In this document: positions 5,559-53,865 of the stretch, in pieces
Layout: the number at the start of each line of letters is the position of its first letter
How positions within the stretch are numbered: position 1 is the stretch's first letter
Assembly (NCBI GenBank): GCA_966203835.1
Contig: CBIHKW010000004.1
Location: 705 to 64,704 of the forward strand
DNA from: an uncultured Thermomonas sp.
Lineage (GTDB): Bacteria > Pseudomonadota > Gammaproteobacteria > Xanthomonadales > Xanthomonadaceae
Direction: 5' to 3'
DNA: 64,000 nucleotides
Made by a program: the position numbers and the translations under genes
Notes under the pieces: model-generated
What the model was told of the DNA's origin: nothing
Database searches by the model: none
Seen by the model: the letters and a program-made list of their open reading frames with translations, nothing else

Positions 5559-5602
5559 CCGATGCTTGCCGGTACCGCCGCCGACCGTTTGAAATCCGCG
5601 AC

Positions 5603-6145: not shown

Positions 6146-6161
6146 CGTCGCGGCTGGGCGG

Positions 6162-7121: not shown

Positions 7122-7199
7122 TTGAACGCCCCCTGCGTCAATGACTGATCCGGAATGTTAGCCCGCGATCATGCCGCTTGGCACCTCCGCCGGGTTCGC

Positions 7200-20366: not shown

Positions 20367-20415
20367 CGGGGTTTCCTGACGGACACGGCGCAGCGGGACG
20401 GGCAGTCTGGAAAGC

Positions 20416-21147
20416 ATGTTCAGCCCTGTCAACCTTATACAACGCCAACGCGTCAGTCCGCGCCTCGCCCGGCTGCTGGACCGGCTGTGGCCGGCGCACT
20501 GCCTGGTCTGCGGCGAAACCGGCGGATCGGGCCGCCATACCCTGTGCCCGGCCTGCCATCGGACCCTGCCCTGGAACCGCAACGCCTGCCTGCGCTGCGG
20601 CCTGCCGCTGGCCCTGCCGGCCGACGCCTGCGGCCACTGCCAGCGCCGACCGCCGCCGCTGACCGAAACCCGGGCGGTGTTCCGCTACGAACGCCCGCTG
20701 GACCGCCTGCTGCCGCGGCTGAAGTTCCACAACGACCTCGCCGCCGGCCGGCTCTGCGGCGAACTCATGGCCAGCACCCTGGCCGAAGCCCAACGGCCGG
20801 ACGCGCTGATCCCGCTACCGCTGCACCGCAGGCGCCTGCGCGGCCGCGGCTTCGATCAGGCGTTCGAGCTGGCCAAACCGCTGGCCGGCGCCCTGCGCCT
20901 GCCGCTGCTGGACGATGCGCTGCTGCGGGTGCGCGACACCGCCCCGCAGTCGCGACTGGACGCCCCGGCCCGGCGCCGCAACCTGCGCCGCGCATTCGCG
21001 GTGCGGCCGGGAACGGCATTGCCCGCGCACATCGCGCTGGTCGACGACGTGATGACCACAGGCGCGACCCTGCACGCCGCCGCCGATGCGCTGCTGCGCG
21101 CGGGCGTCATACGGGTGGATGCCTGGGTGTGCGCGCGGGTGGCGTGA
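20416..21147 (+). CDS. comF: ComF family protein (phosphoribosyltransferase domain)
   Basis: 243 aa with N-terminal Cys pairs (CLVC, CPAC, CLRC, CGHC) and the C-terminal PRTase motif [14 protein letters not shown]. Confidence 0.8.
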
Positions 21148-21165
21148 AAACAACCACGCTGCGCG

Positions 21166-22125
21166 TTATTGAACATAGGTTGCGGGCGGCGGCGGCGGAG
21201 GTGGCGGTTCTCCGGGCGGGCGCGGGCGGGATGGATCCGGAGGAGGAGGCAGAGGCTCACAGATCGGGCAGTGGCCAAGATCGGTTTCCGAAGCACGACC
21301 GGCCACGGCGAGCGTCTGCCGGATATCTTCCAGACGCGCGGCCACCAACGGTGTGCGCTCCATTCCGTAACGTTCGGCGAGTCGGTACAGCGCTCCTGCG
21401 TTCTCGATCGGTCCACCGGCGAGATTGAGCGTGGCCCAATCAGACAGCAGATTGGCGACGACCGGATCCTTCGGTTTCACGAACGGCAATCGTTCGCGGA
21501 GTTGATAAGCGAACGCGCGCTCCAGCTCATGAGGCTTCACTGGTCGGCCGTCGTTGCCGTCCGGATAGGCTTTTGGCAGCGAGGGCACGACGATAGGGTC
21601 GAAAACGACACCGGCGACAGAACGACCGTCGAGAAAGCGCGGGTTGTCTTTCAACGCGAGCTTGGCCACCAGAATGCGCGCATGCAGCCATTCGGTGCCT
21701 TCGTGCTCGCGACGGTCGCGACGGATGCCGAGCCGGATCCAGCGCAATGCGAGCGCGTCGCGGCCCATCAGCTCGAGCGCCGTGCCGAGATTGGCCGCGG
21801 TCTGGTGTCGCCCCGGATACAGGGCCTCGATCCGGACGAACAGGCGGGTCGCAGCGGCGTAGTTGTCCTGATAGATCAGCAGGACGCCCAGATTGGTCAA
21901 ACTGTCGAAATCCGGCTTGGCCAGGGCCTGCTCGATGATCTCTTCTTTCCGGCTTCGCCAGGATTCCTGTGCATACGGATTGGTCATGGTGGCGATCATG
22001 TCGTCGCCGACGAACTCGAACGCTTCGAAACGTCGCCCGGCGTGATCGGTCGTCGGCGAGGGATTGATGCACGCCAACACCGACGGCGACACCAGCAGCG
22101 CCCCCAACAGCCACCATTTCTTCAT
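21166..22125 (-). CDS. secreted TPR-like hypothetical protein with a poly-proline C-terminus
   Basis: 319 aa with a signal peptide, helical-repeat-like middle and the tail CPICEPLPPPPDPSRPRPPGEPPPPPPPP. Confidence 0.55.
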   Translation of the reverse strand: MKKWWLLGALLVSPSVLACINPSPTTDHAGRRFEAFEFVGDDMIATMTNPYAQESWRSRKEEIIEQALAKPDFDSLTNLGVLLIYQDNYAAATRLFVRIEALYPGRHQTAANLGTALELMGRDALALRWIRLGIRRDRREHEGTEWLHARILVAKLALKDNPRFLDGRSVAGVVFDPIVVPSLPKAYPDGNDGRPVKPHELERAFAYQLRERLPFVKPKDPVVANLLSDWATLNLAGGPIENAGALYRLAERYGMERTPLVAARLEDIRQTLAVAGRASETDLGHCPICEPLPPPPDPSRPRPPGEPPPPPPPPATYVQ

Positions 22126-22192
22126 CCGAACACTCCTCGACCCGTTTCGTCGTTCGACACCAGAACCGGGACCGGGTTCCAGCGCAAGCCGC

Positions 22193-22480
22193 TCACCACT
22201 CGAACAACTTGAAATACACCGGCGACACGTCCTTGTCCTCGTCGAGGCGGCCGTCGCCGTTGCGGTCGTAGAGATAGAACGCCGGGCCGCGCTTGGGCTG
22301 GACCTTCACCACCCGCAGCTGGCCCGCAACGCGGTATTCGGTGATCTCGTCGCCGTTGGGCTGGATCTTGGTCGCGGCGACCGCATCGGCCGGAATCCCG
22401 GTGTCGGCGCTGTCGCCGGTGGTGGCGCAACCGCCGAGGGCAAGCATCAGGGGCAGTACGAGCAGGATCGAACGGCGCAT
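22193..22480 (-). CDS. DUF2782-like small lipoprotein
   Basis: I chose the start MRRSILLVLPLMLALGGC (lipobox). It lies divergent from polA, the position I recall for DUF2782 genes in gammaproteobacteria. Confidence 0.7.
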   Translation of the reverse strand: MRRSILLVLPLMLALGGCATTGDSADTGIPADAVAATKIQPNGDEITEYRVAGQLRVVKVQPKRGPAFYLYDRNGDGRLDEDKDVSPVYFKLFEW

Positions 22481-22587
22481 GGCGGTCTCCGGCGGCGGGG
22501 GTGCGGCGATTATGCGCCGCAGGGCGTGAACCATCCGTGCCGCCGGTGGCGGTTCGGTCGCCCGGAGACGCGGAGTAGAATCCGCCC

Positions 22588-39859: not shown

Positions 39860-40948
39860 TTACCGAATCTCCGTCACCAACGTCGGCAACTCCCACGCAC
39901 CACCCGCGAAGCCTTTGCACATCCCCGTGGAAGATGCGCTGGTCTGCACGAAGCCGGTGCCGTTCCAGGTCCATTCTTCGGAGCCCCAGCAGTCGCCGAT
40001 GCCGCGCGCTTTCTGGGTGGAGCCCAGGGTGCCGTTATCGAAGTCGGTGGCGTCGGCGGTGACCAGTTCGGGACGATAAGGTGCGGTGTCGTTGATGATC
40101 CAGTAGCCGCTGCCGGCGTTGTAGGCGGCCAGCCAGCAGCGGGTGGAGACCAGCAGTTTCGTCTTCGTCAGTCGCACCACGTCGAGTGCCCGCTCTTCGT
40201 CGCCCGTCTCTTCGCCCGTTTCGTGCAGATCGCCGCAGCTGTCCTCATCGGTCGCGCTGCGCAGCGCCTTGCGCAGGGCGTCGCCGTGCTGGGCGATGAA
40301 GCGCGCGTCGCCGGGTTTGGCCGGCACTAGCGGTGCGGCTTTCACGACCGGCGCGGGCAGCGGCGGCGGCACGGTCGCTTCGGTCTTCTTGCCTTTGCGA
40401 TACGCGGCGCCGACGGTGCCGATGCGGCCCTGGAATTCGTCCATCTTCAGCAGCACCGCAGCGGCGCCGCGATCGGAAAGCGCCCAGACGGTCTTGCCTG
40501 CGCGGAATTCGATCTCCGTGTCGCGCGTCAGCGCTTTCAGCAATGCCGCGACCTGCGCAGCGGTGAGGTCGGCTTGAAGCGCGGTCTTGCCCACGGTGCG
40601 CTCACCGTAGGATTTGCCGTCGATCCACAGCGCGACGCGGAACTGCGCGGGCAGGGCGTCGAGCATGCTGTCCGCCCAGCCGTCGCCCAATGTCACCTGA
40701 CCCGCGACGGCTGTGCCCGCACCGGCCTTGCGGGTGAGCAGCACGCTGACCGGCATGTCGGCATCGTCGCGCTGATAGCCGGCCACACGACAGGTGCGGG
40801 TGTTGTCGCAGACCATCTGCCAGTCCTGATGATCGAAGCTGCCTTCCTCGGCCCGCGCCGGTAACGCCGCGGGCGCGGCCAATGCGAGGAACAGGGCGGC
40901 ATGAAGGATGCGGCTGCGTTGCGGGATGCGGGTCATGCGCGATTCCAA
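39860..40948 (-). CDS. secreted Cys-containing protein, probably DUF1176 family
   Basis: 362 aa with a signal peptide, WQMVCDNTRTCRVAGYQ near the N-terminus and further conserved-looking Cys residues at the C-terminus. The family assignment is from memory only. Confidence 0.55.
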   Translation of the reverse strand: MESRMTRIPQRSRILHAALFLALAAPAALPARAEEGSFDHQDWQMVCDNTRTCRVAGYQRDDADMPVSVLLTRKAGAGTAVAGQVTLGDGWADSMLDALPAQFRVALWIDGKSYGERTVGKTALQADLTAAQVAALLKALTRDTEIEFRAGKTVWALSDRGAAAVLLKMDEFQGRIGTVGAAYRKGKKTEATVPPPLPAPVVKAAPLVPAKPGDARFIAQHGDALRKALRSATDEDSCGDLHETGEETGDEERALDVVRLTKTKLLVSTRCWLAAYNAGSGYWIINDTAPYRPELVTADATDFDNGTLGSTQKARGIGDCWGSEEWTWNGTGFVQTSASSTGMCKGFAGGAWELPTLVTEIR

Positions 40949-41024
40949 GCGTGGGCGATGTGCGCGTGAGCATAGCGAATCGGCCGATGGCGGATTGGCC
41001 CGCGTGCGCGACGGCAGCGATGGC

Positions 41025-41046
41025 GGCGTGCTTGAGCACGCCCTAC
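41025..41046. repeat. REP (GGCGTGCTTGAGCACGCCCTAC)
   Basis: Inverse copy of the element at 12927-12948. Confidence 0.7.
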
Positions 41047-41088
41047 TCGATCTCGATCACTCGATGCGCGCGATCTTTCCGCGGCGCT

Positions 41089-42528
41089 TTACCCGCGCGG
41101 CCGAACCCGCGGCCGCGCACCTTCGACCGGAATCGGCTCGAACATCGCCGGATTCAGCAGTTTCAGCGCGTCGCGACAGTCGAGATACGGATAGTTGCGG
41201 CCGGTGGCGCCGTCCTGGATGCGCGTCGGCGACAGCTTCATCGCTTCCATCCGCTGCGCGACCGTGCTGGCGGGCGCGGCCTGTTTCAACGCGACCGCGC
41301 AGGCGGCGACCATCGGCGCGGCCTGCGAGGTGCCGCCGAAATTCGAAGTGCCGCCGTTGATGCCCGGCGCGCGGACGAACGCGCCGGCGGCGAACAGATC
41401 GGTGGTGGTGCTGCGATTGGAGAAACAGGTCGGCTGGAAGGGCGCAGTCGCGCCTTCGGTGCAGCCCAGGAAGGTGATCGCGGGGCCGGTGAAATCCCAG
41501 GTCGCGGCCGTGGAGACCACGTTGCGGATGCACGACGGCGCGCCCATGTTGCCGAGATTGCCCTGATTGCCCGAGGAGGCGGTCACCACCGCGCCCAATG
41601 CATTGAGATTGGCCACCGCCACCGCGAGCGCCTGCGTCCACGCGGCCGAGGTGTCGCAGTCGCCGGGTAAAAGCGTGTCGGTGCCGAGGCTGAGATTGAC
41701 CGCATCGATGTCGGGATGCTGCGTCGCCAGCCAATCCAGCGCGGCCACTACGTCCGAGGTCGAATTGAAGCGGTTGTTGCGGTCGATCACCTTCACCGCG
41801 ACCAGATTCACCGCCGGCAGCGCGCCGCGCGGCGCGACCGTGCCGGCGCCGCCGATGATGCCGGCGACATTCGTACCGTGGCCCTGGTCGTCTTCGGCCG
41901 AACCCACGCCCGACTGGCTGCTGCCGCCGTTCGGACAACAGCCGCTGCCGACGCTGCAGAAACACGCCTGACCAACGATCCTGCCGAGGAAATCGGCGTG
42001 ATCGGTATCGATGCCGGTGTCGACCACGCCGACCTTCATCCCGGCGCCGCCGACGCCGAGCGCCGTGAGCTGATGCACCTGGTTCTGCACCGACGCCGCG
42101 TCGGGCTCGACCGCGTGACCGGCGCCGCCGACATCCAGATCCACGCGGACCACGCGACGGTCGCGCGCCAGCGCCGCCAGCGTGTTCGCATCGGCCATCA
42201 GCACGAACGCCGGCACGCGCTCGAAACGCCGCAGCACCTTGCCGCGCGCCCGCGCCGGCAACGCCGACAGCACGCCATCGACCTCACTGCGCACGCGCGG
42301 GTGCAGCTTCGGCGCGGCATCGCGTGTGGGCAAGCGGCCGTTCGCGGCGAGGACAGCATTCGCGGCGCGATCGCGCAACATCACCACCACGCGCACCTCG
42401 CCGTCGCGCTGCGCCTGTTGCTGCGCCGCCGCGGACACCAGCTGCGCCTGCGCCGGCAGCGCCGCCGCCAACAGCGAGGCCGTCAAAAGCGCGATCCAGA
42501 TCGCGCTCAAAGTCCGAATCGTTTTCAT
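41089..42528 (-). CDS. S8 family (subtilisin-like) serine peptidase, secreted
   Basis: I chose the start MKTIRTLSAIWIALL, preceded by GAGAGG. It has a propeptide-like N-terminus and the catalytic triad motifs VGVVDTGID, HGTNVAGII and GGTSQAAPMV. Confidence 0.9.
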   Translation of the reverse strand: MKTIRTLSAIWIALLTASLLAAALPAQAQLVSAAAQQQAQRDGEVRVVVMLRDRAANAVLAANGRLPTRDAAPKLHPRVRSEVDGVLSALPARARGKVLRRFERVPAFVLMADANTLAALARDRRVVRVDLDVGGAGHAVEPDAASVQNQVHQLTALGVGGAGMKVGVVDTGIDTDHADFLGRIVGQACFCSVGSGCCPNGGSSQSGVGSAEDDQGHGTNVAGIIGGAGTVAPRGALPAVNLVAVKVIDRNNRFNSTSDVVAALDWLATQHPDIDAVNLSLGTDTLLPGDCDTSAAWTQALAVAVANLNALGAVVTASSGNQGNLGNMGAPSCIRNVVSTAATWDFTGPAITFLGCTEGATAPFQPTCFSNRSTTTDLFAAGAFVRAPGINGGTSNFGGTSQAAPMVAACAVALKQAAPASTVAQRMEAMKLSPTRIQDGATGRNYPYLDCRDALKLLNPAMFEPIPVEGARPRVRPRG

Positions 42529-42561
42529 GGTCGCCTCTCGGGTTGTTCGCTGCGCATGCAT

Positions 42562-45500
42562 TCAGTCGACTTTCTTTTCGGGCGGCGATGCGGTCGTCGC
42601 CACGATTTCCGCAGCGATCGCGATCCGCGCCGCGGCGGTGCGCGCGCGGGTCGACTCGCCGTACATCAGTTCCGCCAGCGCGGGCGCGGCGAGATAGTCG
42701 CCGGTGTTGCCGACGCGCGCGAAATAATGCACCTCATGCCGGCCCGCAGGCAGGAATTCGGCATAGAACTTCGGCGCGCGCGGATCCAGCCGGCGGGTGC
42801 GGAACCAGTCGCTGCCCTCGTCGGATACCTGCTGCAGATCCAGCCCAGCCACCCCGCTCAAGGCCAGATCGGTCGGACGCAAACCGCCCGGCACCGCGTC
42901 GGTGATCGCCACGAAATAGCGATCCGCGCCGGTGTCGAGCGTCAGCGTGACGCGCAGCCAGTCGCCGTCGCGGAGCGTTTCTTTGTCGGCCGCTACCCAG
43001 CCGCGCTCGCGCAGCACCGCGTATCGCCGCGCCAATACGAAACCGACCGCGGTCGAACTGGCCTCGCGCGCGTCTTCGCGATAGCTGATTTCGGCGATGT
43101 AACTGGCTGGGGCATCGCCTTCGACATGCGGGGTCAGCTGCAGCGGCGCTTTCGCCGTGCTCGACGTCAGGGCACGCTGCCAATGCTGCGCGGGTGCGCC
43201 GGGTTCGAGGCGTAGCGCGCCGCGTTCGTCGCCGTGCGCGATGTCGAGCGCCAACGTCTCATCGGGTTTGCGCTTACCCAATGCGCGCAGTGCGATCAGG
43301 CAGCTGGCGCCGGTCTGTGTGTCCACGGCCGCGAAGCCGCCGGCATACAGATCGCCGAGACCTGCGATCAGCGAACGCCGCAATGCGACATCCCCGGCGT
43401 CCGGGAAATCGAAGAGCAGGCCGATGAATTCGCACTGCTCGCGCAGATCGGAGCTCATCCAGCGGTCGTGACGGATATCGCTGCGCAGGGTGCTCGCTTC
43501 GCCGCGGCGTCTGGTCGCGTCGCGCAGCTTCGCGACCGCTTCGGCCGCGGCCGGATGCTGGCCGGCGAGCATCGCGCGCGTGGTCGCCACCCGCGCCGGC
43601 AAGCCGAGCGCGGGCCACTGCCGCCACAGAAAGCCCACCACATCGCTGCCGGGGCGCGTTTGCGCCGCAGCGACGAACGCGGTCTGCTCGGCCTGCGCGA
43701 TGCCGTCTCCGGAAGGCCGACTGCGCCGCTGCAGGAAGCCTTCGCCGCGCCCCACCGCTTCGCCGGGCACCGCATGGCCCATCTCGCCCAACAGGCGCAG
43801 CGCGCGCACGCTATAGGCGGTCAGCGCGTGCTGCGCCTTCTCTTCGTCGTAGCGCCCCGGGTCTTCGCCATCGGCAAAATAACGGAAGGCGCCGTTCTCG
43901 CCCTGGAACACCGCAATATTTTCGACGACTTCCTGCACCGCGGCCTTGGCATCCGGCCAGCGGTCGCCATCGCCGCGTTCGATCGCGATGGCCGCAGCGA
44001 CACCGCGACTGAGGATCTGTTCCCAGCAGCGATGCGGATACGCATGCAGATCGTCGATCCATTGATGCACCAGCGCATCGGCGCCGGGCAGCAGCGACAC
44101 CCGCAGCGCGATATCGCTGGCGCTGCGCGGCAGCGCCGGCGCATCGAGACGCAAGGGCGTGGCGCCGAGCCAGCCGGCCTGGACCTTGCGCGCTTCGATG
44201 GTCGGCGAGGCGAGTTCGATCAATGCCGACACCGCGTCGCTGTCCTCGCCGCTGCGCGCGGCGGCCACCGCTGTCAGCGTCCGCGATGCGCCATCGGTCT
44301 GTTCGCGGAGATCGATATCGGCCGGCGCGATCCGCAACGGCAGCGTCGTCTGCCCGCGCGGCGCCAGCGCGAGCATGCGGGTCGCATCAACGCCGAGCGT
44401 CTCGACCTGCAGCGTCGCATCGACATCGGCGACGCGATCGCCGCTCTGACGCACGTTGGCGACCAGATCCGCACGGTCGCCCGGATACACCCGCACCGGC
44501 GTCTGCAGGCGCACTTCCAGCGGCAGTCCGACCTCGAACGTGGCCTCGGCCATTTCGAAGCCGTCGTCGGCGTCGCTGCTCCAGGCCACCGCGCGCCAGC
44601 GGGTGAGGTTGTCGGGCGTGGTGAATTCGATGGTGCGGGTTTCGCCCGGCGCGAGACGGATGTCGGGCTGCCACAGCGCGGTGTCGGCGAAGTCGCGACG
44701 CAGGCGTGCGCCGAACAGCGCTTTGGCGTCGGCTACACGCTGTGCGTCGCCGTTGCGCGGCGGGATGTCCAAGCGTCCCTGTCCATCGCGCGGCAGTCCA
44801 TTATTGATGCCCGGCAGCACATCGCCAGCGGATTTCAATCCTTCCGCCTCGATCTTCGCGCGATCGATCAACAGCACCGGCGACGCCCCCTCACCCGGAG
44901 AGAATTCATCGACGCGCGCGATACGCGAACCGGTGACGACGATGCTATCCAGCCCATCGTCCGATTCTGCGCCGGCATTCGTTTGCAGCGCCGGCGGTGG
45001 CGGGGGTGACGGCGCCGCTGCTGCTTGCGGACCGTCCACCGGGCTGGTTTCATCGAACACCACAGGCGGCGGCTCTTCGGACGACGCAGCGTCCGCTACC
45101 TCGGGCTGCGCTGCTTCTTGCGCAGGCTGGCGCGCGTTGGGCCAGTGCAACCGACGCTGCCACGGGGTCTTATTCCAGTCGCGGAAGCCGGCGAGGAACG
45201 GCCGATGGCTCCAGTCGTCGGCCCGCATGCCCAGCCAGCGTTCGCCACTCGGATCGAAATACAACCACCATTCGGCACCGAGCGCACGCACCGCATCGTC
45301 CAGTACCGCCAGGGTCGCGGTGCGCGGCGTGCTGCCGCCGTTGTGCAGGCGGATGCGCAGCACCTGCGCCGGCGCGGTGCGTTCCTTGTCGAGCGTCAAC
45401 CCGAGCTGCGGTGCGCGATCGGGACGCGGCACGACGATCATGATGGAGGTCGCGTCGCTCTTCGCCGGCAGACGCAGACCGTTCGCATCGATCCCGGCGT

Positions 45501-48450
45501 CGGCGCGTTCGCGCACCAGCGCATGCACATTGACCTGGCCGCGCCCAGCGGCGCCCAGCGGCAGTAGCAGCTCGCGCGCACCGCCCTCGATGGCGATCGC
45601 CCGGCTGTCGAGCAGCGCGCCCTCGGATTCGATGACGATCATCGCCTGCGCGCGCGCGTACGGCGATTTCAGCAGCAGGCGCGCAGGCGCGTCGGGGGTG
45701 GCCGGCGCTTCGACGATCTCGATCGCGAGCCGCTGCGACGTTGCGCCGCTGCCTCCGGCCCACACATAGCGCTCGATCTCGACCGGCGCCGCGTCGCCGC
45801 TGCGCGCGGTGATCAGGTAGCGGCCACTGCGCTTGCGCGGGAAATCGCAGGGGGTCGTGGTGCCGGCCATCAGTGCGCAGCGGGCGATGGTTTCGCGCTT
45901 CGCGTCCTTGTCGCCGTCGCCGCCGAAACCGGGCAGATATTCGACCGCGACTTCGATCGCGGCGCCAGCCTGGGCGTGGCCGTCGGCATCGATCACCACC
46001 CCGTCGAGGCGCAGCGGCGTGGTCGCATCGAACCAGCGCGGTGCGATACGCAGGCCGACATAGCGCGGGTACCGCGCATAGCGCGCCTGCGCCGCATTGC
46101 TCACGGTGCCTTCGCGCGCTTCCAGCTTGACCTCCGCGGTGAGCTGCAGCCGACCGAACGCGGGCAGATCAGCCTCGGTGTCGCCCTTGTCGAGTTCGAA
46201 TGTCAGCGGCAGCTCGATCCTTTTCTTTCCGTCGCGGTCGAGCTTGCCCCAGTCGCGGGACTGGCCCCGCAGCGACACGCCATCGCGGCCGGCACCGCGG
46301 TCGACGTCGATGAAACTGTAGTCGGCATAGGCGGGATACGCGCTGGACAGCGGCAGGCCGGTGAGCATGGCCGACACCCGACCCAGCGCGACTTCCGCGG
46401 CACCGCCGCCGGAGTAATAGCCTGCGGCGATATCGGCGACGAACGTATCGCCGTCGCGCAACACGCGGTCCTCGGCGCTGGCTTCCGCCCACAGATCCTG
46501 CGAACGGTAGGTACCGACGAAGAAACACACGTCGTTGTCCCCTCGCCCGGCGTCCATCCGGATGCAGTAATTGCCGTCCACCAGATGCTGCGGCAGACGT
46601 TCCTCGCCCGCGATGCCGCCCAGATCGTCGGGCGTCGCGGTCCAGGTGCGCAGCGTTTTGTCTTCGTCGCTGAAATACAGATTCAGCTGGACCTTCGCCG
46701 TCTCCTGCATGCGCAGCAGACGGCCTTCTCTGCGCTCGCGCAGCCACAGGCGATAGCGGACGGTGTCGCCGGCGCGGTATAGCGGACGGTCGACGACGCC
46801 CCACAGACGCGCGTCGATCCGATGCATGCCGAGATTCAGGCCGTAACGCTGCACGGCGTCCAGCGGCAGCAGCGCGCGGCGCGCGCCAGTCTGCGCGCGC
46901 AACAACCACTGCGGCGGCGGCACGCCGCGCTTCTCCGCGGGCATGCGGAAGTCATCCGGCAAGCGCAGGCGCAGCAAGCCGTCTCGGTCACTGCGGCCGG
47001 CAACGATGCGTGTCGGAGGCTCACCATTTATATGCAACAGCAATTCGATATCTGCACCGGCGATCGCGGCGCCGCCCTTCCATTCCGTCGCCCATGCCAC
47101 CAGCTCGCGTCGGGTGGCGTAGGCGCTGAGTTCGAACTGCGGCGCGACGACGTGCATGGTCTCGCGATCGCCATGACGCCATTGCGCCCAGCCGCCCGCT
47201 GCGAGCGCACGTGCGCTGGCATCGGCATTCACGCCCGCCGCGCCGCCGCGCGAATCGGGCGTGCTCACGGTGTTGGCGGCGAATCCACCCGCAAGCGCGT
47301 CCACCCGCAGTTCGACCGGTTCGGCATTGACGCTGCGGATCGGGTCGCGCGCCGGGTCGCCGAGCAGCAGCGCGCGAGCCGAAGCCTGCAGTTGCGGGCG
47401 CGCCTCGCTGGTGGCGATGCGCAACCGCACCGGCGCCAGCGCGCGGCTGCGATCATCATGGATCGTGTCGCCGAGCGCGAAGGTTTCGCTCGACGACGAC
47501 GCATCGAAACGCAGTTGAAAGCCGGCGCCCGGCCGGCGCTGCACGTTGTCGGAGCCGCGCATGCCCGGCCACCAGCCGTTGTCGTTCTGGTCCTCAACGT
47601 TCAAGGCCTTCGGCAACATCGCTGCGATCGCGTTCCGGCCGGCCACGTTTAGTGGCGACGAAAACGTCAGCCAGATCGGTTCGCCGGGCACGCAAACGGT
47701 ATTGAGCAGTCCCTTGCGCACCGAGCGCTGTACCTGGCGCGACGGTCCTTCGCAATGCACCGACCGTAATTGGAACGGCTCGCGGTCCACGAAGCGCAGG
47801 AGTTGGCCATTCTGTTTGCCGGGCAGCGGGCCTTCGGTCGTGCGCAGCCCGGGCACGATCCGCAGCTCGACTTCCGCGCCGATATCGAGGTCGTCGGGCA
47901 AGTTCAGCGCGAAGCGCGACTTCAGCCACTCCTGTCCTTCGAACGGCAGCGCCTGCAGTGAGAGATTCGACCACTCGCGACCGTTGCTGCGCAGACGCAG
48001 CACGTTCGCCACCGCGTCGAGCGCCAATGCGCGCTCACTTTCGATCAGGATCCGCGGCCGCAGGCCATCCCACCCGCCGATGCTCGCGCGCAGGCTCGGC
48101 CGGGAAGTCTCTGTCTTGAAGGTGCGCACGGGCAGCCGCTGGCCTGCGGCCGTCTGCAGTCCTTCGGAAAGTACGAGGGCCACCGGGGTCGCAGCAGGCA
48201 GCGGATCGCCTTCGATCTTGCAGTTGAGCTCGATATCGTCCTGCCAGACGCAGACGTAACGACGCGACGGCACGGACGACACGAGGTCGTGCAACTCGAC
48301 GTTGTCCAACACCCGCATCGACTCGGAAAATTCGATCCGCAGCCTGTCTTCTCCGAGATCGACTTCGATCTCCGGATCCTTGCCGATGGCGACCGGCGCG
48401 ACGAGCGCTGCCCACAACGCGAACATGCCAATGGCGATGCGATGCGGCAT
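42562..48450 (-). CDS. alpha-2-macroglobulin family protein with a thioester motif
   Basis: 1962 aa with a signal peptide lacking a lipobox. Post-bait signature RRDFADTALWQPDIRL...TTPDNLTRWRAVAW. Thioester motif YPHRCWEQ (Cys at about residue 1475, codon at 44026-44028). GAGGGGA SD sequence upstream. Confidence 0.9.
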   Translation of the reverse strand: MPHRIAIGMFALWAALVAPVAIGKDPEIEVDLGEDRLRIEFSESMRVLDNVELHDLVSSVPSRRYVCVWQDDIELNCKIEGDPLPAATPVALVLSEGLQTAAGQRLPVRTFKTETSRPSLRASIGGWDGLRPRILIESERALALDAVANVLRLRSNGREWSNLSLQALPFEGQEWLKSRFALNLPDDLDIGAEVELRIVPGLRTTEGPLPGKQNGQLLRFVDREPFQLRSVHCEGPSRQVQRSVRKGLLNTVCVPGEPIWLTFSSPLNVAGRNAIAAMLPKALNVEDQNDNGWWPGMRGSDNVQRRPGAGFQLRFDASSSSETFALGDTIHDDRSRALAPVRLRIATSEARPQLQASARALLLGDPARDPIRSVNAEPVELRVDALAGGFAANTVSTPDSRGGAAGVNADASARALAAGGWAQWRHGDRETMHVVAPQFELSAYATRRELVAWATEWKGGAAIAGADIELLLHINGEPPTRIVAGRSDRDGLLRLRLPDDFRMPAEKRGVPPPQWLLRAQTGARRALLPLDAVQRYGLNLGMHRIDARLWGVVDRPLYRAGDTVRYRLWLRERREGRLLRMQETAKVQLNLYFSDEDKTLRTWTATPDDLGGIAGEERLPQHLVDGNYCIRMDAGRGDNDVCFFVGTYRSQDLWAEASAEDRVLRDGDTFVADIAAGYYSGGGAAEVALGRVSAMLTGLPLSSAYPAYADYSFIDVDRGAGRDGVSLRGQSRDWGKLDRDGKKRIELPLTFELDKGDTEADLPAFGRLQLTAEVKLEAREGTVSNAAQARYARYPRYVGLRIAPRWFDATTPLRLDGVVIDADGHAQAGAAIEVAVEYLPGFGGDGDKDAKRETIARCALMAGTTTPCDFPRKRSGRYLITARSGDAAPVEIERYVWAGGSGATSQRLAIEIVEAPATPDAPARLLLKSPYARAQAMIVIESEGALLDSRAIAIEGGARELLLPLGAAGRGQVNVHALVRERADAGIDANGLRLPAKSDATSIMIVVPRPDRAPQLGLTLDKERTAPAQVLRIRLHNGGSTPRTATLAVLDDAVRALGAEWWLYFDPSGERWLGMRADDWSHRPFLAGFRDWNKTPWQRRLHWPNARQPAQEAAQPEVADAASSEEPPPVVFDETSPVDGPQAAAAPSPPPPPALQTNAGAESDDGLDSIVVTGSRIARVDEFSPGEGASPVLLIDRAKIEAEGLKSAGDVLPGINNGLPRDGQGRLDIPPRNGDAQRVADAKALFGARLRRDFADTALWQPDIRLAPGETRTIEFTTPDNLTRWRAVAWSSDADDGFEMAEATFEVGLPLEVRLQTPVRVYPGDRADLVANVRQSGDRVADVDATLQVETLGVDATRMLALAPRGQTTLPLRIAPADIDLREQTDGASRTLTAVAAARSGEDSDAVSALIELASPTIEARKVQAGWLGATPLRLDAPALPRSASDIALRVSLLPGADALVHQWIDDLHAYPHRCWEQILSRGVAAAIAIERGDGDRWPDAKAAVQEVVENIAVFQGENGAFRYFADGEDPGRYDEEKAQHALTAYSVRALRLLGEMGHAVPGEAVGRGEGFLQRRSRPSGDGIAQAEQTAFVAAAQTRPGSDVVGFLWRQWPALGLPARVATTRAMLAGQHPAAAEAVAKLRDATRRRGEASTLRSDIRHDRWMSSDLREQCEFIGLLFDFPDAGDVALRRSLIAGLGDLYAGGFAAVDTQTGASCLIALRALGKRKPDETLALDIAHGDERGALRLEPGAPAQHWQRALTSSTAKAPLQLTPHVEGDAPASYIAEISYREDAREASSTAVGFVLARRYAVLRERGWVAADKETLRDGDWLRVTLTLDTGADRYFVAITDAVPGGLRPTDLALSGVAGLDLQQVSDEGSDWFRTRRLDPRAPKFYAEFLPAGRHEVHYFARVGNTGDYLAAPALAELMYGESTRARTAAARIAIAAEIVATTASPPEKKVD

Positions 48451-48711
48451 TCAGGATTCCCCTCGACAGACTGCTGGCGGTCATCGTGACCGATCGAACC
48501 CGGATCGCCAACATGGACGGACCGGAGTCATCGGCAACGCGCGTCGATGGAAAAAGGGGTCGAAAGCGGGCGTTACGGGCGCGATCCGCCGCGCGGGCCG
48601 ACATGGCCATCATTGCGATGGCTTCGCGCGCGCGCGCGGCGCTGTCAGCGGGAAACCCCGCGGGCGGGCGCTGCCGCGCGCCGCGGGGCGAAAGCGATGA
48701 TCCGGATGCGG

Positions 48712-49119
48712 TTATTCGATGGCCGACAACTGCATGTTGGTGGCCATGTCCTTGGCGATGTTGTTGACCCAGCCCAGGTAGTTCGAGTGGATGAAGCGCT
48801 TGCCGTTGCGCTGTTTGTAATCGAGGTCGACGCTGCTGACGTAGGCGATGCGGACGGTCTGGGCGTCCCAGGTCACGAGGATCTTCGCGGTGTGGGTGCG
48901 GAGGTTGAGGGTGGATTCGATTTCGCCGGGACGCTCGGCGGTGATCGCCCAGCCGCGGCCGATCAGGGCGCGCTTGATGTCCTTGACCGCCTTCTCCTGC
49001 GAGAGGCCGGCGGGAATGGACACCGGGGCGGGATCGACCAGCGGCGCCTGGCGGGCCTGGATGGCGCCGCTGAAGGCGAGCAGCGTAAGAGCGGACAGAA
49101 CGATGGCGGAAAAACGCAC
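48712..49119 (-). CDS. small secreted hypothetical protein
   Basis: 135 aa, GTG start preceded by AAGGGGG, signal peptide FSAIVLSALTLLAFSGAIQA. I recognise no family. Confidence 0.55.
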   Translation of the reverse strand: MRFSAIVLSALTLLAFSGAIQARQAPLVDPAPVSIPAGLSQEKAVKDIKRALIGRGWAITAERPGEIESTLNLRTHTAKILVTWDAQTVRIAYVSSVDLDYKQRNGKRFIHSNYLGWVNNIAKDMATNMQLSAIE

Positions 49120-49285: not shown

Positions 49286-50572
49286 GTGGTGTCTTTCGCA
49301 GCGATGTCCTTCCCGCCGATGACGCCACTGGCGATCCGCGCCTATACCGCCACCACCGCGCTCGGCCATGGCCGCGAGGCGCAGGCCGAGGCGCTGCGCG
49401 TGCGCCGCAGCGGCCTGCGCCGCAACGATTTCGGCGACGGCGCCACCGCCGACGCCCGCCTGGACACCTGGATCGGCCGGGTCGACGGCATCGAAACGCT
49501 GGTGCTGCCGCCCGAATTGGCCGCCTACGACTGCCGCAACAACCGCCTCGCCTGGCTGGCGCTGCAGCAGGACGGCCTGCCCGAGGCCATCGCCGCGCTG
49601 CGCGAACGCCACGGCGCCGAGCGCGTCGCGGTGGTCATCGGCACCTCGACCTCCAGCATCGGCGCCAGCGAAGAGGCCTACACGCGACTCGATGACGGTG
49701 CCTTCCCGGCCGATCTGCGCCGCCCGCTGCTGCATACGCCGCATTCGCCGGGCTATTTCGTACAGCTCGCGACCGGTCTGCGCGGCCCCTGCGTCACCGT
49801 GGCCACCGCCTGTTCGTCCAGCGCCAAAGTGTTCGCGCAGGCGGCGCGGCTGATCCACGCGGGCGTGGTCGATGCCGCGCTGGTCGGCGGCGTCGATACC
49901 CTTTGCGGCAGCGTGTTGTTCGGTTTCAACGCGCTGGGGCTGGTCTCGACGCAGCGCTGTCTGCCGTTCGACGCCCGCCGCGACGGCCTGAATCTCGGCG
50001 AAGCCGGCGGCTACGCGCTGCTGGAACGCTGCGACCCCGCGCAGCCGGGCCTGACCCTGCGCGGCTACGGCGAAAGCAGCGACGCCCACCACATGTCCAC
50101 GCCGCATCCGGAAGGGCTCGGCGCGCGGCTGGCGATGCAGGGCGCACTGGCCCGCGCGGGTCTGGCGCCGGCCGATGTCGGTTATCTGAATCTGCACGGC
50201 ACTGCCACGCCGGCCAACGACACCACCGAAGCGATCGCGGTCCGCGGGCTGTTCGGCGAGGGCGCGTTCGGTGACCGCCTGCTCGAAGACGGCATGCCCG
50301 GCAATGGCCTGCACGCAAGTTCCACCAAAGGCTGGACCGGGCACACGCTGGGCGCCGCCGGCATCGTCGAATCGGTGTTCGCGCTGCTCGCGCTTGAGCG
50401 CGGCCTGCTGCCCGGCACGCTCGGCAGCGGTGAAGCTGACGACACGCAGCCCGACCCCGCCTGCGGCCCACAGATCCGTTTCGACAATGCAGAACGCACG
50501 ATCCGATACGCCATGAACAATTCTTTCGGCTTCGGCGGCAACAACGCCTCGCTGGTGTTCGGACGCGAATGA
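49286..50572 (+). CDS. beta-ketoacyl-ACP synthase (aryl-polyene/xanthomonadin KS)
   Basis: Active-site Cys in TVATACSSSAKVF and the His motifs HGTATPAND and GHTLGAAG. The start is uncertain (GTG 49286, ATG 49304 or ATG 49319). Confidence 0.9.
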   Translation: MVSFAAMSFPPMTPLAIRAYTATTALGHGREAQAEALRVRRSGLRRNDFGDGATADARLDTWIGRVDGIETLVLPPELAAYDCRNNRLAWLALQQDGLPEAIAALRERHGAERVAVVIGTSTSSIGASEEAYTRLDDGAFPADLRRPLLHTPHSPGYFVQLATGLRGPCVTVATACSSSAKVFAQAARLIHAGVVDAALVGGVDTLCGSVLFGFNALGLVSTQRCLPFDARRDGLNLGEAGGYALLERCDPAQPGLTLRGYGESSDAHHMSTPHPEGLGARLAMQGALARAGLAPADVGYLNLHGTATPANDTTEAIAVRGLFGEGAFGDRLLEDGMPGNGLHASSTKGWTGHTLGAAGIVESVFALLALERGLLPGTLGSGEADDTQPDPACGPQIRFDNAERTIRYAMNNSFGFGGNNASLVFGRE

Positions 50573-51378
50573 TGACGACCACTGCATCGACTACCACATC
50601 GACCACCGCGCTCATCGCGCATATCGAAAGCATCGGCTTCTGGACCAACGGTCTGCCGTCTTGGCAGGCCGCCCGCGATTTCGTCGCCACCGGCGCGCTG
50701 CCCGAGGGCGCGCCCGCCAAACCGTCGCCGCAGCTGCTGGCGCCGAACGAACGACGCCGCTCGCCGGAATCGGTCGCGGTGGCGCTGGACGTCGCGCTGG
50801 CTGCGTGCGCGGACGCCGGACGCGCGCCCGCGGACCTGCCGTCGGTATTCACCTCGACCCACGGCGATCTGTCGATCACCGACTACATGTGCGCGACGCT
50901 GGCCACCGCGCCGCGCGACATCTCGCCGACCAAATTCCACAACTCGGTCCACAACGCCGCCGCCGGCTACTGGACCATCGGCGCCACCTGCATGCGCGAG
51001 GCGACCGCGATCAGCGCCTACGACGCCAGCTTCGCCCAGGGCCTGATCGAGGCCATGGCCCAGCTCGCCGAAGGCAGCGAAGCGGTGCTGCTGGTCGGCT
51101 ACGACACCGGTTCGGTCGGCCCGCTGCTGTCGGTACACGACTGCGCCGGCTTGCTCGGCGGCGCGCTGGTGCTGTCGCGCCACGGCCAAGGTCCGCGCCT
51201 CGTCGCGACGCTGGCCGATGGCGAAGCGTCGGCGCCGGGCGCGCTGGGCCGCCACGCCGGTGCCAACCCGATGGCGCCGATGCTGCCGCTGTTCGATGCC
51301 TTGGCGACGGGCGCATCGAGCACCGCGCTGAAGGCAGGGCCAAACCGCGTGCTGAGGCTGGAGATCGCGTATGACTGA
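50569..51378 (+). CDS. KS-like chain-length-factor protein (no active-site Cys)
   Basis: 269 aa with an ATGA overlap with the KS gene. This is the typical partner gene in aryl-polyene clusters. Confidence 0.8.
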   Translation: MMTTTASTTTSTTALIAHIESIGFWTNGLPSWQAARDFVATGALPEGAPAKPSPQLLAPNERRRSPESVAVALDVALAACADAGRAPADLPSVFTSTHGDLSITDYMCATLATAPRDISPTKFHNSVHNAAAGYWTIGATCMREATAISAYDASFAQGLIEAMAQLAEGSEAVLLVGYDTGSVGPLLSVHDCAGLLGGALVLSRHGQGPRLVATLADGEASAPGALGRHAGANPMAPMLPLFDALATGASSTALKAGPNRVLRLEIAYD

Positions 51379-52207
51379 TGTCGTCGCCACGCCTGCCCCG
51401 ACGACAGCCGCCGTCGTGCTCGACCGCCGCAACGTCGCCGTGGTCATCCCCGCGCTCAACGAAGCCCTGCGCATCCGCGAAGTGGTGGAAGGCGCGCTGA
51501 GCGCATGCGACCACGTGATCGTGATCGACGACGGCTCCGACGACGACACCGCCGCGAAGATCGCCGACCTGCCGGTCACCCTGCTGCGCCACCCGCAGCG
51601 CATGGGCAAGGGCGCGAGCCTGCGCGACGGCTTCCGCGAAGCCGAGCGTCTGGGCATGGCCGCGGTCACCACCATGGACGGCGACGGCCAGCATTCGGCC
51701 GGCGACATCCCGCGACTGATCGCCGCCGCCAATCGTCATCCCGGCTGCGTCGTGATCGGCGCGCGCCTGCGCAAGCGCGCCTCGCAGCCGATCTATCGCC
51801 GCATCGGCAACGATTTCGGCGACTGGGGCATCGCCTGGGGCTGCGGCTTCCGGGTGCGCGACACCCAGAGCGGCCAACGCCTGTATCCGGCATCGGTGTT
51901 CACCCTGCGCGACGTCCGCGGCGAAGGTTTCGTGTTCGAGGCGCAGCTGCTGATCTCCGCCGCACGCCGCGCCGGCGCACGCGTGGTCGGCGTGCCGATC
52001 GAAACCCGCTACCAGTGCGCGGACGCGCCGCAGACCTTCCGCAAAAGCCATTTCCGCCTGTTCCGCGACCTGTACGCCATCACTTCGCATGTGGTGGTAC
52101 AAGTCCTGGGCTATGGCCACGTGTTCCGCGAATACCGCCGCGCGCGCGCCAACCCGCCTGTGATCGAAGATCCCAGCGGCGAATTCTCTTCGAGGACGCA
52201 ACGATGA
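51371..52207 (+). CDS. family 2 glycosyltransferase
   Basis: VVIPALNE ... VIVIDDGSDDDT ... TTMDGDGQH. Confidence 0.85.
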   Translation: MTDVVATPAPTTAAVVLDRRNVAVVIPALNEALRIREVVEGALSACDHVIVIDDGSDDDTAAKIADLPVTLLRHPQRMGKGASLRDGFREAERLGMAAVTTMDGDGQHSAGDIPRLIAAANRHPGCVVIGARLRKRASQPIYRRIGNDFGDWGIAWGCGFRVRDTQSGQRLYPASVFTLRDVRGEGFVFEAQLLISAARRAGARVVGVPIETRYQCADAPQTFRKSHFRLFRDLYAITSHVVVQVLGYGHVFREYRRARANPPVIEDPSGEFSSRTQR

Positions 52208-53865
52208 CCGAGACAGCGGCGACAGACGCGACGACAACGCCCAGCCGGCAGCACGATGTGGTGGTGCTCGGCGGCGGCCTCGCCGGCCTCACGCTCGCGA
52301 TGCAGCTCAAGCAGCGCGATCCCGGCATCGACGTGGCGGTGCTGGAACGCCGCGCGCACCCGGTCCGCGAAGCCGCGTTCAAGGTCGGCGAATCCACGGT
52401 CGAGATCGGCGCGAGCTATTTCGCCAACGTGCTCGGCCTGCGCGAACACCTGGAAACCGAACAGATCCGCAAATTCGGCTTCCGCTTCTTCTTCAGCGAA
52501 GGCCGCACCGAGATCGACCGCTGCACCGAACTGGGCGTCAGCGAGCTGCTGCCGGCGCCGTCGTGGCAGCTGGACCGCGGCCGTTTCGAGAATTTCCTCG
52601 GCGAAGAAGCGCGCAAGCTCGGCGTGCATTTCCACGATGCGGCGACCGTGCGCGGCGTGGACTTCGGCGCCGGCGAGGACGCGCATACGGTGACCTTCGA
52701 ATCCGCCGGCGACAGCCATACGCTGTCCTCGCGCTGGGTGGTCGACGCCAGCGGCCGCGCCGGGCTGCTCAAGCGCAAGCTCGACCTGGCGCAGAGCAAC
52801 GATCACGACGTCAACGCGGTGTGGTGGCGGGTGGACGGCTTCGTCGATCCGCGGCTGTGGTCGGACGATGCCGAGTGGCAGGCGCGCTGCACGCCGCCGG
52901 ACCGCTGGCGCTCCACCAACCACATGTGCGGGCCGGGCTACTGGTTCTGGCTGATCCCGCTGTCGTCGGGCGCGCATTCGCTGGGCATCGTCTGCGACGC
53001 GAAAATGCATCCGCTGGACACCATGAACACCCACGAAAAAGCCACCGCCTGGCTGCGCGAACACCAGCCGCGCATGGCCGAAGCGCTGGACAAGCCCGAA
53101 CACGGGCTGCAGGACTTCCTGTTCCTGCGCCATTTCTCCTACGGCTGCAAACAGGTGTTCAGCGGCGACCGCTGGGCATTGACCGGCGAGGCCGGCCTGT
53201 TCCTCGATCCGTTCTATTCGCCGGGCAGCGATTTCATCGCGATGTCGAACACGCTGATCTGCGACCTCATCGACAAGGACCGCGCCGGCCAGTCGTTCGC
53301 GCCCTATGCCGACATCTACCAGCAGCTGTATTTCTCGTTCTACGAAAACACGCTGACGATCTATCAGGACCAGTACCCGCTGTTCGGCGACGCGCAGGTG
53401 ATGCCGGTCAAGGTGATCTGGGACTACACCTACTACTGGGCGCTGCTGGCGCCGCTGTTCTGCGGCGGCAAACTCACCGACATCCAATTGCTGGGCAAGC
53501 TGCGCCCGCAGTTCGAACGCGGTCGCGACCTCAATCTGGCGATGCAGAAATTCCTGCGCGGCTGGGGCGAGCGCAACATCGCGGCGGGCGTGGACGGCTC
53601 TCCGCTGGACGGCCGCTTCCTCAACCAGCACGGCATCGACTGGTTCCACGAAATGAACCGCGCGCTGCACGACATGCTGGACAACCCGGCGTTCCAGCAG
53701 CGCATCCACGACAACGTCGCGCGGATGGATTGGCTGGCGGCGGAAAGCCTGCAGCGCGCGCGCCAGACGTATGCGGACATCGACGACTGCGGCCTGGATG
53801 CGCTGCTGCAGGGGTCGACGGCGAAGACCTCGCTCGCCCCGATCTGGTACGCCGCCGCGGCCTGA
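52204..53865 (+). CDS. FAD-dependent halogenase-like oxidoreductase
   Basis: Start MTETAATD (ATGA overlap). It has the motifs VVVLGGGLAGL and the flavin-halogenase-type GYWFWLIPL (WxWxIP). Confidence 0.8.
   Translation: MTETAATDATTTPSRQHDVVVLGGGLAGLTLAMQLKQRDPGIDVAVLERRAHPVREAAFKVGESTVEIGASYFANVLGLREHLETEQIRKFGFRFFFSEGRTEIDRCTELGVSELLPAPSWQLDRGRFENFLGEEARKLGVHFHDAATVRGVDFGAGEDAHTVTFESAGDSHTLSSRWVVDASGRAGLLKRKLDLAQSNDHDVNAVWWRVDGFVDPRLWSDDAEWQARCTPPDRWRSTNHMCGPGYWFWLIPLSSGAHSLGIVCDAKMHPLDTMNTHEKATAWLREHQPRMAEALDKPEHGLQDFLFLRHFSYGCKQVFSGDRWALTGEAGLFLDPFYSPGSDFIAMSNTLICDLIDKDRAGQSFAPYADIYQQLYFSFYENTLTIYQDQYPLFGDAQVMPVKVIWDYTYYWALLAPLFCGGKLTDIQLLGKLRPQFERGRDLNLAMQKFLRGWGERNIAAGVDGSPLDGRFLNQHGIDWFHEMNRALHDMLDNPAFQQRIHDNVARMDWLAAESLQRARQTYADIDDCGLDALLQGSTAKTSLAPIWYAAAA

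Follow-up and report, generated by a model that had tools for sequence, protein, structure and literature searches.

Bacterial alpha-2-macroglobulins (A2Ms) are divided into two types, with baits that are generic and short (PMC5764988). Type I A2Ms are encoded in an operon with pbpC (PBP1c), and type II is represented by MagD of Pseudomonas aeruginosa, which belongs to the six-gene mag operon (PMC5764988). The window, a 64,000-nt stretch of DNA from an uncultured Thermomonas sp., encodes an A2M in a row of genes for secreted proteins, directly followed by the gene of a subtilisin-like S8 peptidase. This arrangement raises the questions of whether the S8 peptidase is the cognate partner of the A2M, to which type the A2M belongs, and what its bait is made of.

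Gene layout and the S8 peptidase

The block consists of the following genes.

48712..49119, minus strand: orf135, small protein, exported, family unnamed
42562..48450, minus strand: A2M of 1962 aa with a signal peptide and without a lipobox (translation, Pfam)
41089..42528, minus strand: S8 peptidase, subtilisin-like, secreted; start at ATG 42528, open reading frame (ORF) open to 42561
39860..40948, minus strand: DUF1176 protein, exported, Cys-containing (Pfam DUF1176)

Four minus-strand genes in a row, all with signal peptides, had been described in the initial annotation. The ORFs are present at these coordinates, and on visual inspection all four N-termini resemble signal peptides. The start of the S8 gene 33 nt past the A2M stop, with a Shine-Dalgarno (SD) sequence of its own, was confirmed; GAGG lies 6 nt upstream of ATG 42528. 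The S8 peptidase matches PF00082 (Peptidase_S8, E 1.6e-30). Its D170/H217/S401 triad is intact and in subtilase order, and the protein has 10 Cys. The DUF1176 protein matches Pfam DUF1176 (E 3.5e-85), and ATG 40936 is a likelier start of its gene than TTG 40948. Downstream of orf135 come a GC-rich hairpin and a 261-nt gap to the A2M gene. orf135 itself has no match in Pfam or NCBIfam, its nearest Atlas clusters are unnamed "lipoprotein family" proteins, and it lies upstream of A2M in 9 of 45 related loci. NCBIfam also gave no match for the A2M or the DUF1176 protein. A promoter/terminator scan returned 0 promoter-like sites and 8 terminator-like sites, the latter at chance level (6.8 expected).

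The A2M and the S8 peptidase had been proposed to be cognate, with the S8 peptidase activating or processing the A2M, or with the A2M shielding the cell from the exported S8 peptidase in transit. The 33-nt gap, the separate SD sequence, the shared strand, the intact triad, and the signal peptide of the S8 peptidase are in line with such a pair. In a survey of gene neighborhoods, which the initial annotation had called for, 11 of 45 related loci contained an S8 ortholog within 10 kb of the A2M gene, and in 6 of them (L006, L007, L010, L011, L018, and L019) the two genes are direct neighbors; this may reflect a lineage-specific functional link. However, among the 41 loci whose downstream flank spans at least 2 kb, 30 had no S8 ortholog. 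Of the 11 S8-bearing loci, 5 have the S8 gene 1.1-3.5 kb downstream of A2M; a DUF808 gene intervenes in L014, L015, and L028, accompanied by an S9 peptidase gene in L014. A sample of genomes from 150 species of the family contained A2M in 15 genomes, S8 in 11, and both in 3, with S8 absent from 12/15 A2M genomes and A2M absent from 8/11 S8 genomes. Two of the three genomes with both genes carry them on different contigs, and adjacency was seen in the window's genome only. The conserved bait motifs described below are also independent of S8 presence. Lack of conserved linkage in orthologs had been named at the outset as an outcome speaking against the pairing, and linkage is indeed not conserved; the S8 peptidase as cognate partner was therefore not borne out, and we consider it decidedly improbable.

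The real conserved pair is S8-DUF1176, not A2M-S8. The spacing from S8 to DUF1176 is approximately 21 nt in two same-genus genomes. One same-genus genome carries KS-S8-DUF1176 at this site without A2M, which is a further point against a cognate A2M-S8 pair, and another carries the S8-DUF1176 pair on a different contig from A2M. DUF1176 was found near A2M only in L006, L007, L010, and L011. Judged from the 33-nt gap, co-transcription of A2M and S8 is possible in this lineage, and the S8 gene is at most a lineage-specific co-transcribed neighbor. The block is best explained as a juxtaposition of three units, namely orf135, a solitary A2M gene, and the S8-DUF1176 pair. The four genes are neighbors and not a dedicated team.

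Fold and class of the A2M

The features within the A2M gene are listed below.

44752..45228, minus strand: bait, residues 1075-1233, approximately 160 residues, disordered and Pro/Ala-rich
45028..45078, minus strand: copied stretch of the proline-rich linker of the resident TonB, residues 1125-1141 (blastp)
44920..44952, minus strand: TonB box of the L-D-x-I-x-V-T-G-S-R-I type, residues 1167-1177
44806..44919, minus strand: homolog of the plug start of a TonB-dependent receptor, residues 1178-1215 (blastp)
44017..44028, minus strand: thioester motif CWEQ, residues 1475-1478 (translation)

The intact CWEQ motif and the lack of a lipobox in the 1962-aa protein, both noted in the initial annotation, were verified in the translation; a lipobox is excluded because no Cys occurs among the first 60 residues. 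CWEQ is invariant in family alignment A1, and 119 of 120 homologs have it; the remaining sequence is truncated. No canonical lipobox was seen among the family N-termini inspected by eye. Annotation of the MG domains with HMMs, which had been suggested, yielded the Pfam domains MG2, A2M, and bMG10. The protein was modeled with AF2 in two parts, residues 1-859 (pLDDT 85.9) and residues 860-1962 (pLDDT 77.6). The best Foldseek matches of both halves were ECAM 5a42 and SaA2M 4u48 (E 3e-38 and 1e-16). The window's A2M is thus predicted to have the multi-MG, CUB, and thioester-domain A2M fold; this type-I snap-trap fold was modeled for the window's A2M only among the clade members.

The overall fold, the CXEQ thioester, and the position of the bait before MG7 are shared with ECAM/YfhM and SaA2M. 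Nevertheless, the window's A2M has only approximately 16% identity to ECAM and SaA2M, and the A2M family profile did not reach the ECAM/SaA2M chains by sequence at E ≤ 0.001. It is also approximately 300 residues longer than these proteins, and differs from them in its bait of approximately 160 residues, which is built from Ton-system mimics. Unlike type I A2Ms, it has neither a lipobox nor a pbpC partner. Bait cleavage followed by covalent trapping of the protease, a feature of type I, is putative for the window's A2M.

With MagD, the window's A2M shares a large size, export, the absence of a lipobox, and dependence on the bait region. MagD is thioester-less and needs its Mag partners (PMC5764988), whereas the window's A2M has CWEQ and no mag-like neighbors. 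Type II identity was ruled out by CWEQ and by unrelated housekeeping neighbors. The initial annotation had called the A2M non-canonical, with neither a pbpC nor a mag partner. This description holds: the thioester is present, the lipobox is absent, the window contains no pbpC, and no mag-like genes occur among the neighbors. A tblastn search with the genome's own PbpC gave 0 matches in the window or in the 45 related loci.

A canonical lipoprotein A2M-pbpC pair, with the lipobox L-P-G-C, is present in the same genome on contig C44, where pbpC follows the canonical A2M gene. Since this pair exists elsewhere in the genome, the window's A2M represents an extra, divergent clade. The clade is found in Lysobacterales and is additional to the canonical lipoprotein A2M-pbpC system; 10 distant family members carry no more specific name than "Gammaproteobacteria bacterium". 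Its members are best explained as soluble, exported, and thioester-bearing proteins. The combination of a soluble thioester A2M with a canonical A2M-pbpC pair in one genome adds a third configuration to the two described types.

The bait and its likeness to the Ton system

The bait is flanked by the last N-terminal MG domain on one side and by MG7 on the other. It corresponds to the stretch with pLDDT < 50 in the AF2 model of residues 860-1962 (model residues 216-374), and in a profile alignment it sits immediately N-terminal to the segment aligned with human A2M residues 725-877. In alignment A1 the bait is hypervariable except at its motifs. The TonB box is invariant in this alignment, its strict pattern occurs in 105 of 120 homologs, and a TonB box HMM matches the bait in 160 of 197 family members, without a match elsewhere in these proteins. 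The genome's own large TonB-dependent receptors (TBDRs) carry this same motif.

For the receptor search, residues 1140-1250 of the A2M were compared with the six-frame ORFs of its own genome using blastp. The best non-self matches of the bait in its own proteome were 4-5 TBDR N-termini (E 1.7e-11 to 9e-5). The top match, on contig C28, is 62% identical across 53 aa (E 1.7e-11); further matches are on C1 (5e-10), C1 (4e-7), and C103 (9e-5). The matched TBDRs are Plug-positive, and the two that were checked consist of Plug plus barrel. An HMM built exclusively from TBDR N-termini of this genome recognized, among 197 full-length members, the bait window of 146 and no other part of these proteins. 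Where baits lack the classical motif, plug starts from a different receptor class take its place. Those of genome G045 have 55-67% identity to its own CarboxypepD_reg-type receptors, and nothing matched in G000. The canonical A2M paralog has none of the bait motifs. No paper linking a macroglobulin bait with a TonB box or with TonB-dependent receptors was found in a literature search.

No Plug or barrel Pfam domain was detected in the whole A2M, and even at E ≤ 10 the excised bait (86 and 201 aa) matches no Pfam family. The receptor likeness, only approximately 50 residues, does not have the length that the Plug model requires. We also considered whether the A2M is itself a full TonB-dependent receptor; a TonB box is present, but a complete Plug and a 22-strand beta-barrel are not.

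The best non-self match of the linker copy is the tonB gene beside exbB/exbD on contig C106 (E 7e-9, blastp without composition correction); composition-corrected blastp gave no match of the copy to tonB. The core 8-residue pattern is found only in tonB and the A2M gene among the 25,894 ORFs of the genome. Among 197 members, a TonB-linker HMM finds the copy in 52 baits, approximately a quarter of the family. In a co-variation sample of 7 genomes from 5 genera, the resident TonB was the best or tied-best match of the bait, among 14 TonBs, in 6/7 genomes (4/5 genera), with ties included and related genomes not independent. In genome G146, the bait matches TonB at each of 20 aligned residues. Within these residues, a 46-nt aligned stretch has 7 differences, which read by eye as third-codon-position changes. 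Identity of the residues despite nucleotide differences suggests that selection acts at the protein level. The ExbD-binding D-box of TonB is located directly after the membrane anchor (PMC10907165). The copied stretch lies between the two proline tracts of TonB, and its identity as the D-box was rejected by position.

Possible functions of the bait

The TonB linker and the receptor N-termini of the cell itself are both copied in the bait, and the copies are kept in step with the resident genes. Our tentative preference, with a probability somewhat short of even, is that the bait is a sacrificial mimic, that is, an integrated decoy. The bait is assembled from copies of linear, periplasm-exposed Ton segments, namely a TonB linker stretch, the TonB box, and the beginning of the plug. 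A protease that enters the periplasm and is able to cut TonB or receptor N-termini would cut the bait at least as readily. The cut would spring the trap, and the protease would then be covalently bound via the CWEQ thioester. The A2M would act in the periplasm, a location taken from the by-eye signal peptide only. This cleavage, trapping, and decoy logic is our inference. Proteases directed against TonB or TonB boxes are not known to us, and a literature search for TonB-degrading periplasmic proteases found none.

Conceptual parallels come from other systems. Plant NLR proteins with integrated decoys carry a copy of the pathogen's target within the sensor that detects the attack. Colicins and pyocins have TonB boxes, and in colicins the TonB box works outside a receptor. 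Neither is homologous to the A2M bait; unlike in NLR decoys and colicins, there is no sign here of pathogen effectors or import. If the bait is a decoy, it would be a bacterial example of the integrated-decoy strategy, and it would suggest that the flexible periplasmic segments of the Ton system are worth guarding against protease attack.

The main rival, which we regard as rather unlikely, is that the bait TonB box is a putative true TonB-binding site. TonB might tether the lipobox-less trap beneath the receptors, replacing the type I lipid anchor, or the Ton motor might pull the bait and thereby trigger or regulate the trap mechanically. It fits such docking that the motif is the TonB box of the genome's own large receptors and the most conserved element of a hypervariable loop (strict pattern, 105/120; HMM, 160/197), and a need to bind TonB would account equally well for the near-invariance of the TonB box. 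The family lacks the lipobox, which the canonical paralog has. However, simple TonB docking is insufficient because the bait also copies TonB's own linker; the linker copy and its tracking of the resident TonB are left unexplained, as are the swapped and duplicated plug starts of different receptor classes. A tether within a loop that must be cut is also awkward. With docking on TonB, the Ton system would gain a new client that is not involved in transport. Both the decoy and the docking reading are directly testable with peptides and purified protein. In a more elaborate arrangement, which appears improbable, the trap would be wired into the Ton machine: TonB would grip the bait TonB box while a second partner recognizes the linker copy. 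Pulling by the proton motive force, instead of or alongside proteolysis, would then position the trap under outer-membrane transporters or spring it, making it a force-coupled periplasmic immune device.

Finally, the bait could be a neutral mosaic that gathers fragments of receptor genes and tonB, which are abundant and related, by illegitimate recombination and serves as a mere flexible, cleavable spacer. The order, number, and type of the fragments differ among members, and at the DNA level they are only 85-90% identical to their source genes across 30-56 nt, as might be expected of such a mosaic. This explanation is nonetheless very improbable. The TonB box is retained in 160/197 members, down to approximately 26% overall identity and always in the bait window, and nucleotide differences leave residues identical to the resident TonB. 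Moreover, the fragments come only from periplasm-facing segments of the Ton system and not from random genes.

The four-gene block and the fold of the A2M

The minus-strand block described in the initial annotation, comprising orf135, an alpha-2-macroglobulin (A2M), an S8 peptidase, and a DUF1176 protein, was confirmed by ORF positions, including the short spacing between A2M and S8. The features are listed below.

42562-48450, minus strand: A2M, 1962 aa (Pfam MG2, A2M, and bMG10)
ATG at 42528, minus strand: S8 peptidase, 33 nt past the A2M stop; GAGG precedes the ATG by 6 nt
Start at 40948 (TTG) or, likelier, 40936 (ATG), minus strand: DUF1176 protein (Pfam, E 3.5e-85)
48655-48705, minus strand: GC-rich inverted repeat with a weak T tract, just past the orf135 stop
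49286-53865, plus strand: aryl-polyene/xanthomonadin-like cluster (two ketosynthases, GT2, flavin halogenase-like), divergent from the block

The Asp/His/Ser motifs of the S8 peptidase were intact, and orf135 matched no family in Pfam or NCBIfam. On its 3' side, orf135 has a GC-rich hairpin and is separated from A2M by a 261-nt gap. The inverted repeat, which was missed by a consensus scan, may be a terminator dividing orf135 from A2M. The aryl-polyene/xanthomonadin-like cluster forms the upper flank of the block; LysE, LysR, and DUF885 genes form the lower flank.

In the A2M translation, the thioester motif CWEQ occupies residues 1475-1478, and the signal region is free of cysteine, in agreement with the earlier description of a thioester protein without a lipobox. 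The genome carries two A2M genes, the second on contig C44:

C44:1916-9643 (locus L005): lipoprotein A2M with an L-P-G-C lipobox and a CAEQ thioester motif, followed directly by pbpC

The C44 protein matches all bacterial MG-domain models in Pfam, and this A2M-pbpC pair is a canonical type I system; the window A2M is thus a further paralog, a divergent one, and does not represent a displaced type I gene. A contig scan for A2M relatives gave 45 loci. The reported lack of a pbpC partner held for the window and for all of these loci (45/45).

A word-indexed search with the A2M retrieved 170 proteins, nearly all of 1850-2050 aa, with named relatives in Lysobacter, Luteimonas, Pseudoxanthomonas, and kin. 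In an exhaustive representative search with residues 860-1962, 160 representatives scored E <= 1e-30. Two AF2 models, one of residues 1-859 (pLDDT 85.9) and one of 860-1962 (pLDDT 77.6), contained all-beta MG domains and a helical thioester domain, and the best structural matches of both halves were ECAM (5a42) and SaA2M (4u48), at ~16% identity. The only PDB matches of the family sequence profile were human A2M and CD109 MG7. Residues 1075-1233 (model residues 216-374) were disordered and lie directly before the stretch aligned to human A2M 725-877; these ~160 residues are the bait, the loop that an attacking protease would have to cut to spring the trap, and the bait is long. The window A2M is a type-I-like thioester A2M with a putative signal peptide, no lipobox, and a bait that occupies the canonical position and is both long and disordered.

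In PMC5764988, bacterial A2Ms are divided into type I (thioester, pbpC operon) and type II (MagD, mag operon). The clade of the window A2M shares the thioester of type I and, in the models of the window protein, its fold; it lacks the lipobox and pbpC, and its bait also differs.

Gene neighbourhood of the A2M

The S8 peptidase had been proposed as a cognate partner of the A2M. The window proteins were searched against the related loci by tblastn, and S8 was sought within 10 kb downstream of A2M. An S8 ortholog was found in 11 of 45 loci; 41 loci had >=2 kb of downstream flank, and all 11 belonged to these. S8 directly adjoined A2M in six (L006, L007, L010, L011, L018, and L019) and lay 1.1-3.5 kb downstream in the remaining five; gene calls placed a DUF808 gene between the two in L014, L015, and L028, plus an S9 peptidase in L014. 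DUF1176 and orf135 were near A2M in 4 and 9 of the 45 loci, respectively. The species sample comprised 150 genomes of the taxonomic family, with two A2M candidates scored per genome, so that the A2M count is a floor. A2M occurred in at least 15 of these genomes (11/64 genera) and an S8 ortholog (E <= 1e-30) in 11; both occurred in three, on different contigs in two of them. Two same-genus genomes carried S8 and DUF1176 as a pair ~21 nt apart:

L118 (G091:C1) 4541-8497: S8-DUF1176 pair in a genome without A2M
L117 (G030:C14) 6027-8558: S8-DUF1176 pair on a contig other than that of A2M

At the equivalent site in G091, ketosynthase is followed directly by S8 and then by DUF1176, and neither orf135 nor A2M intervenes. 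Since S8-DUF1176 is kept without A2M or away from it, this is the stable pair, and the adjacency of S8 to A2M is a trait of the window's sub-lineage. Linkage of A2M orthologs to S8 is thus not conserved, the outcome that the initial annotation had named as refuting its proposal. Co-transcription of A2M and S8 in the window's lineage is possible; the proposed module is ordinary neighbourhood variation. The non-canonical character claimed for it holds for the A2M itself, which lacks lipobox and pbpC, and not for a module with S8.

Commoner neighbours in the 45 loci were a ketosynthase upstream, DUF885 downstream, and an S9 peptidase on either strand. The aryl-polyene/xanthomonadin-like cluster was the most conserved (ketosynthase in 26/45). 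These genes and DUF218 are only syntenic with A2M. A DUF218 (PF02698) gene of ~230-260 aa lies immediately upstream of A2M on the same strand in 14/45 loci (L013-L016, L018, L019, L021, L022, L024-L026, L028, L037, and L038), mostly at 4-70 nt and up to 185 nt; it could be the more frequent operon partner. In the window it is missing, and the 261-nt gap takes its place. In L009 (A2M 75% identical), a 1666-aa RHS-repeat protein (19502-24502, minus strand) downstream of A2M replaces S8-DUF1176.

Receptor and TonB segments in the bait

An alignment of 16 members (40-83% identity) showed a bait that was hypervariable save for an invariant L-D-x-I-x-V-T-G-S-R-I at 1167-1177. This is a TonB box of the type found in the large TonB-dependent receptors of the same genome. 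Residues 1140-1250 served as blastp query, and the genome's full set of 25,894 six-frame ORFs as target. The best non-self matches were receptor N-termini, led by one on C28 (62% over 53 aa, E 1.7e-11) and followed by two on C1 (5e-10 and 4e-7), C103 (9e-5), and C207 (0.04). All matched ORFs were Plug-positive, and Plug plus barrel was confirmed for two. The similarity takes in the TonB box plus ~35 residues at the start of the plug; Pfam found no complete plug in the whole A2M or the excised bait.

The strict TonB box motif was present in 105/120 homologs; in the other 15 the motif varied, plug starts were duplicated, or the plug starts belonged to another receptor class. Among 197 full-length thioester members, an HMM built solely from the genome's own receptor N-termini matched the bait window in 146, a TonB-box HMM built from the A2M family in 160, and either in 168, with no match outside the bait. 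The G045 bait, itself of the other receptor class, matched four ORFs of its own genome (~1040-1260 aa, 55-67% identity), two of which were checked with Pfam and are CarboxypepD_reg-type receptors; it matched nothing in the window's genome. Baits are therefore similar to the receptors that their own genomes encode. The closest matches to the G045 bait are the plug starts of a tandem trio, of which L128, the one checked with Pfam, is a CarboxypepD_reg-type TonB-dependent receptor:

G045:C1:1880953-1887833 (L128, L132, and L134): three tandem ORFs of ~1040-1053 aa

A further segment resembles TonB, encoded on contig C106:

C106:2-2754 (L082): tonB, with its N-terminus cut by the contig end, next to exbB and followed by three exbD genes

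A stretch of the proline-rich linker of this TonB recurs almost unchanged at A2M residues 1125-1141, ~30 residues before the bait TonB box. This TonB was the best non-self blastp match of the bait without composition correction (E 7e-9); with correction there was no match. The linker core pattern occurred in only two six-frame ORFs of the genome, TonB and A2M. The linker stretch was present in the TonB orthologs of all 13 other A2M-bearing genomes compared, and its copy in the baits of seven genomes (HMM i-E <= 0.02); a TonB-linker HMM matched the bait in 52/197 members. In six of the seven genomes (4/5 genera), the resident TonB was the best or tied-best bait match among 14 TonBs, with ties mostly within the same genus; in the seventh it ranked third. 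Variant residues were shared: in the two genomes of one genus, TonB and bait alike carry one and the same substitution. For G146, the bait was identical to TonB over 20 aligned residues, within which a 46-nt aligned stretch held seven differences, read by eye as third-codon-position changes. Because the residues are identical despite these changes, selection on the protein match is a better explanation of the pattern than fresh gene conversion. Overall, sequence comparison shows a bait made of Ton-system segments that the family conserves and that correspond to resident genes.

The copied stretch was considered as the ExbD-binding D-box and ruled out by the D-box position given in PMC10907165. 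The C-terminal domain of the C106 TonB has a weak TonB_C score (29 bits) and contains cysteines; this type occurs in 6/14 TonB orthologs compared.

Possible roles of the bait

We tentatively favour a reading in which the A2M would act in the periplasm as a snap-trap, with the bait as a sacrificial decoy mimicking Ton-system targets; taken whole, this statement falls slightly short of an even chance. The copied segments would be flexible and periplasm-exposed, and hence protease-vulnerable, parts of an essential system. In the main rival, appreciably less probable, the trap would dock onto TonB through its TonB box, which would serve as an anchor or as a trigger worked by force. An invariant TonB box is just as compatible with docking, but a TonB ligand would need no copy of TonB's own linker, whereas copying and tracking of that linker fits a target mimic. 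The S8 partnership of the initial annotation, with its adjacency in the window's sub-lineage and its absence from most related loci, is improbable and might be a side function in that lineage. A neutral mosaic bait is very unlikely in view of its conservation.

What is new is an A2M with a surprising bait, the adjacency to S8 being ordinary; in the open-access full texts searched, no paper linking TonB boxes or TonB-dependent transporters to macroglobulin baits was found. In several A2M orthologs (G127, G108, G024, G033, and L115 on G016:C14), the match is split or interrupted by an in-frame stop. The G016 stop falls inside the bait, and a single TGA is present in others; such cases may reflect pseudogenes or errors of assembly.
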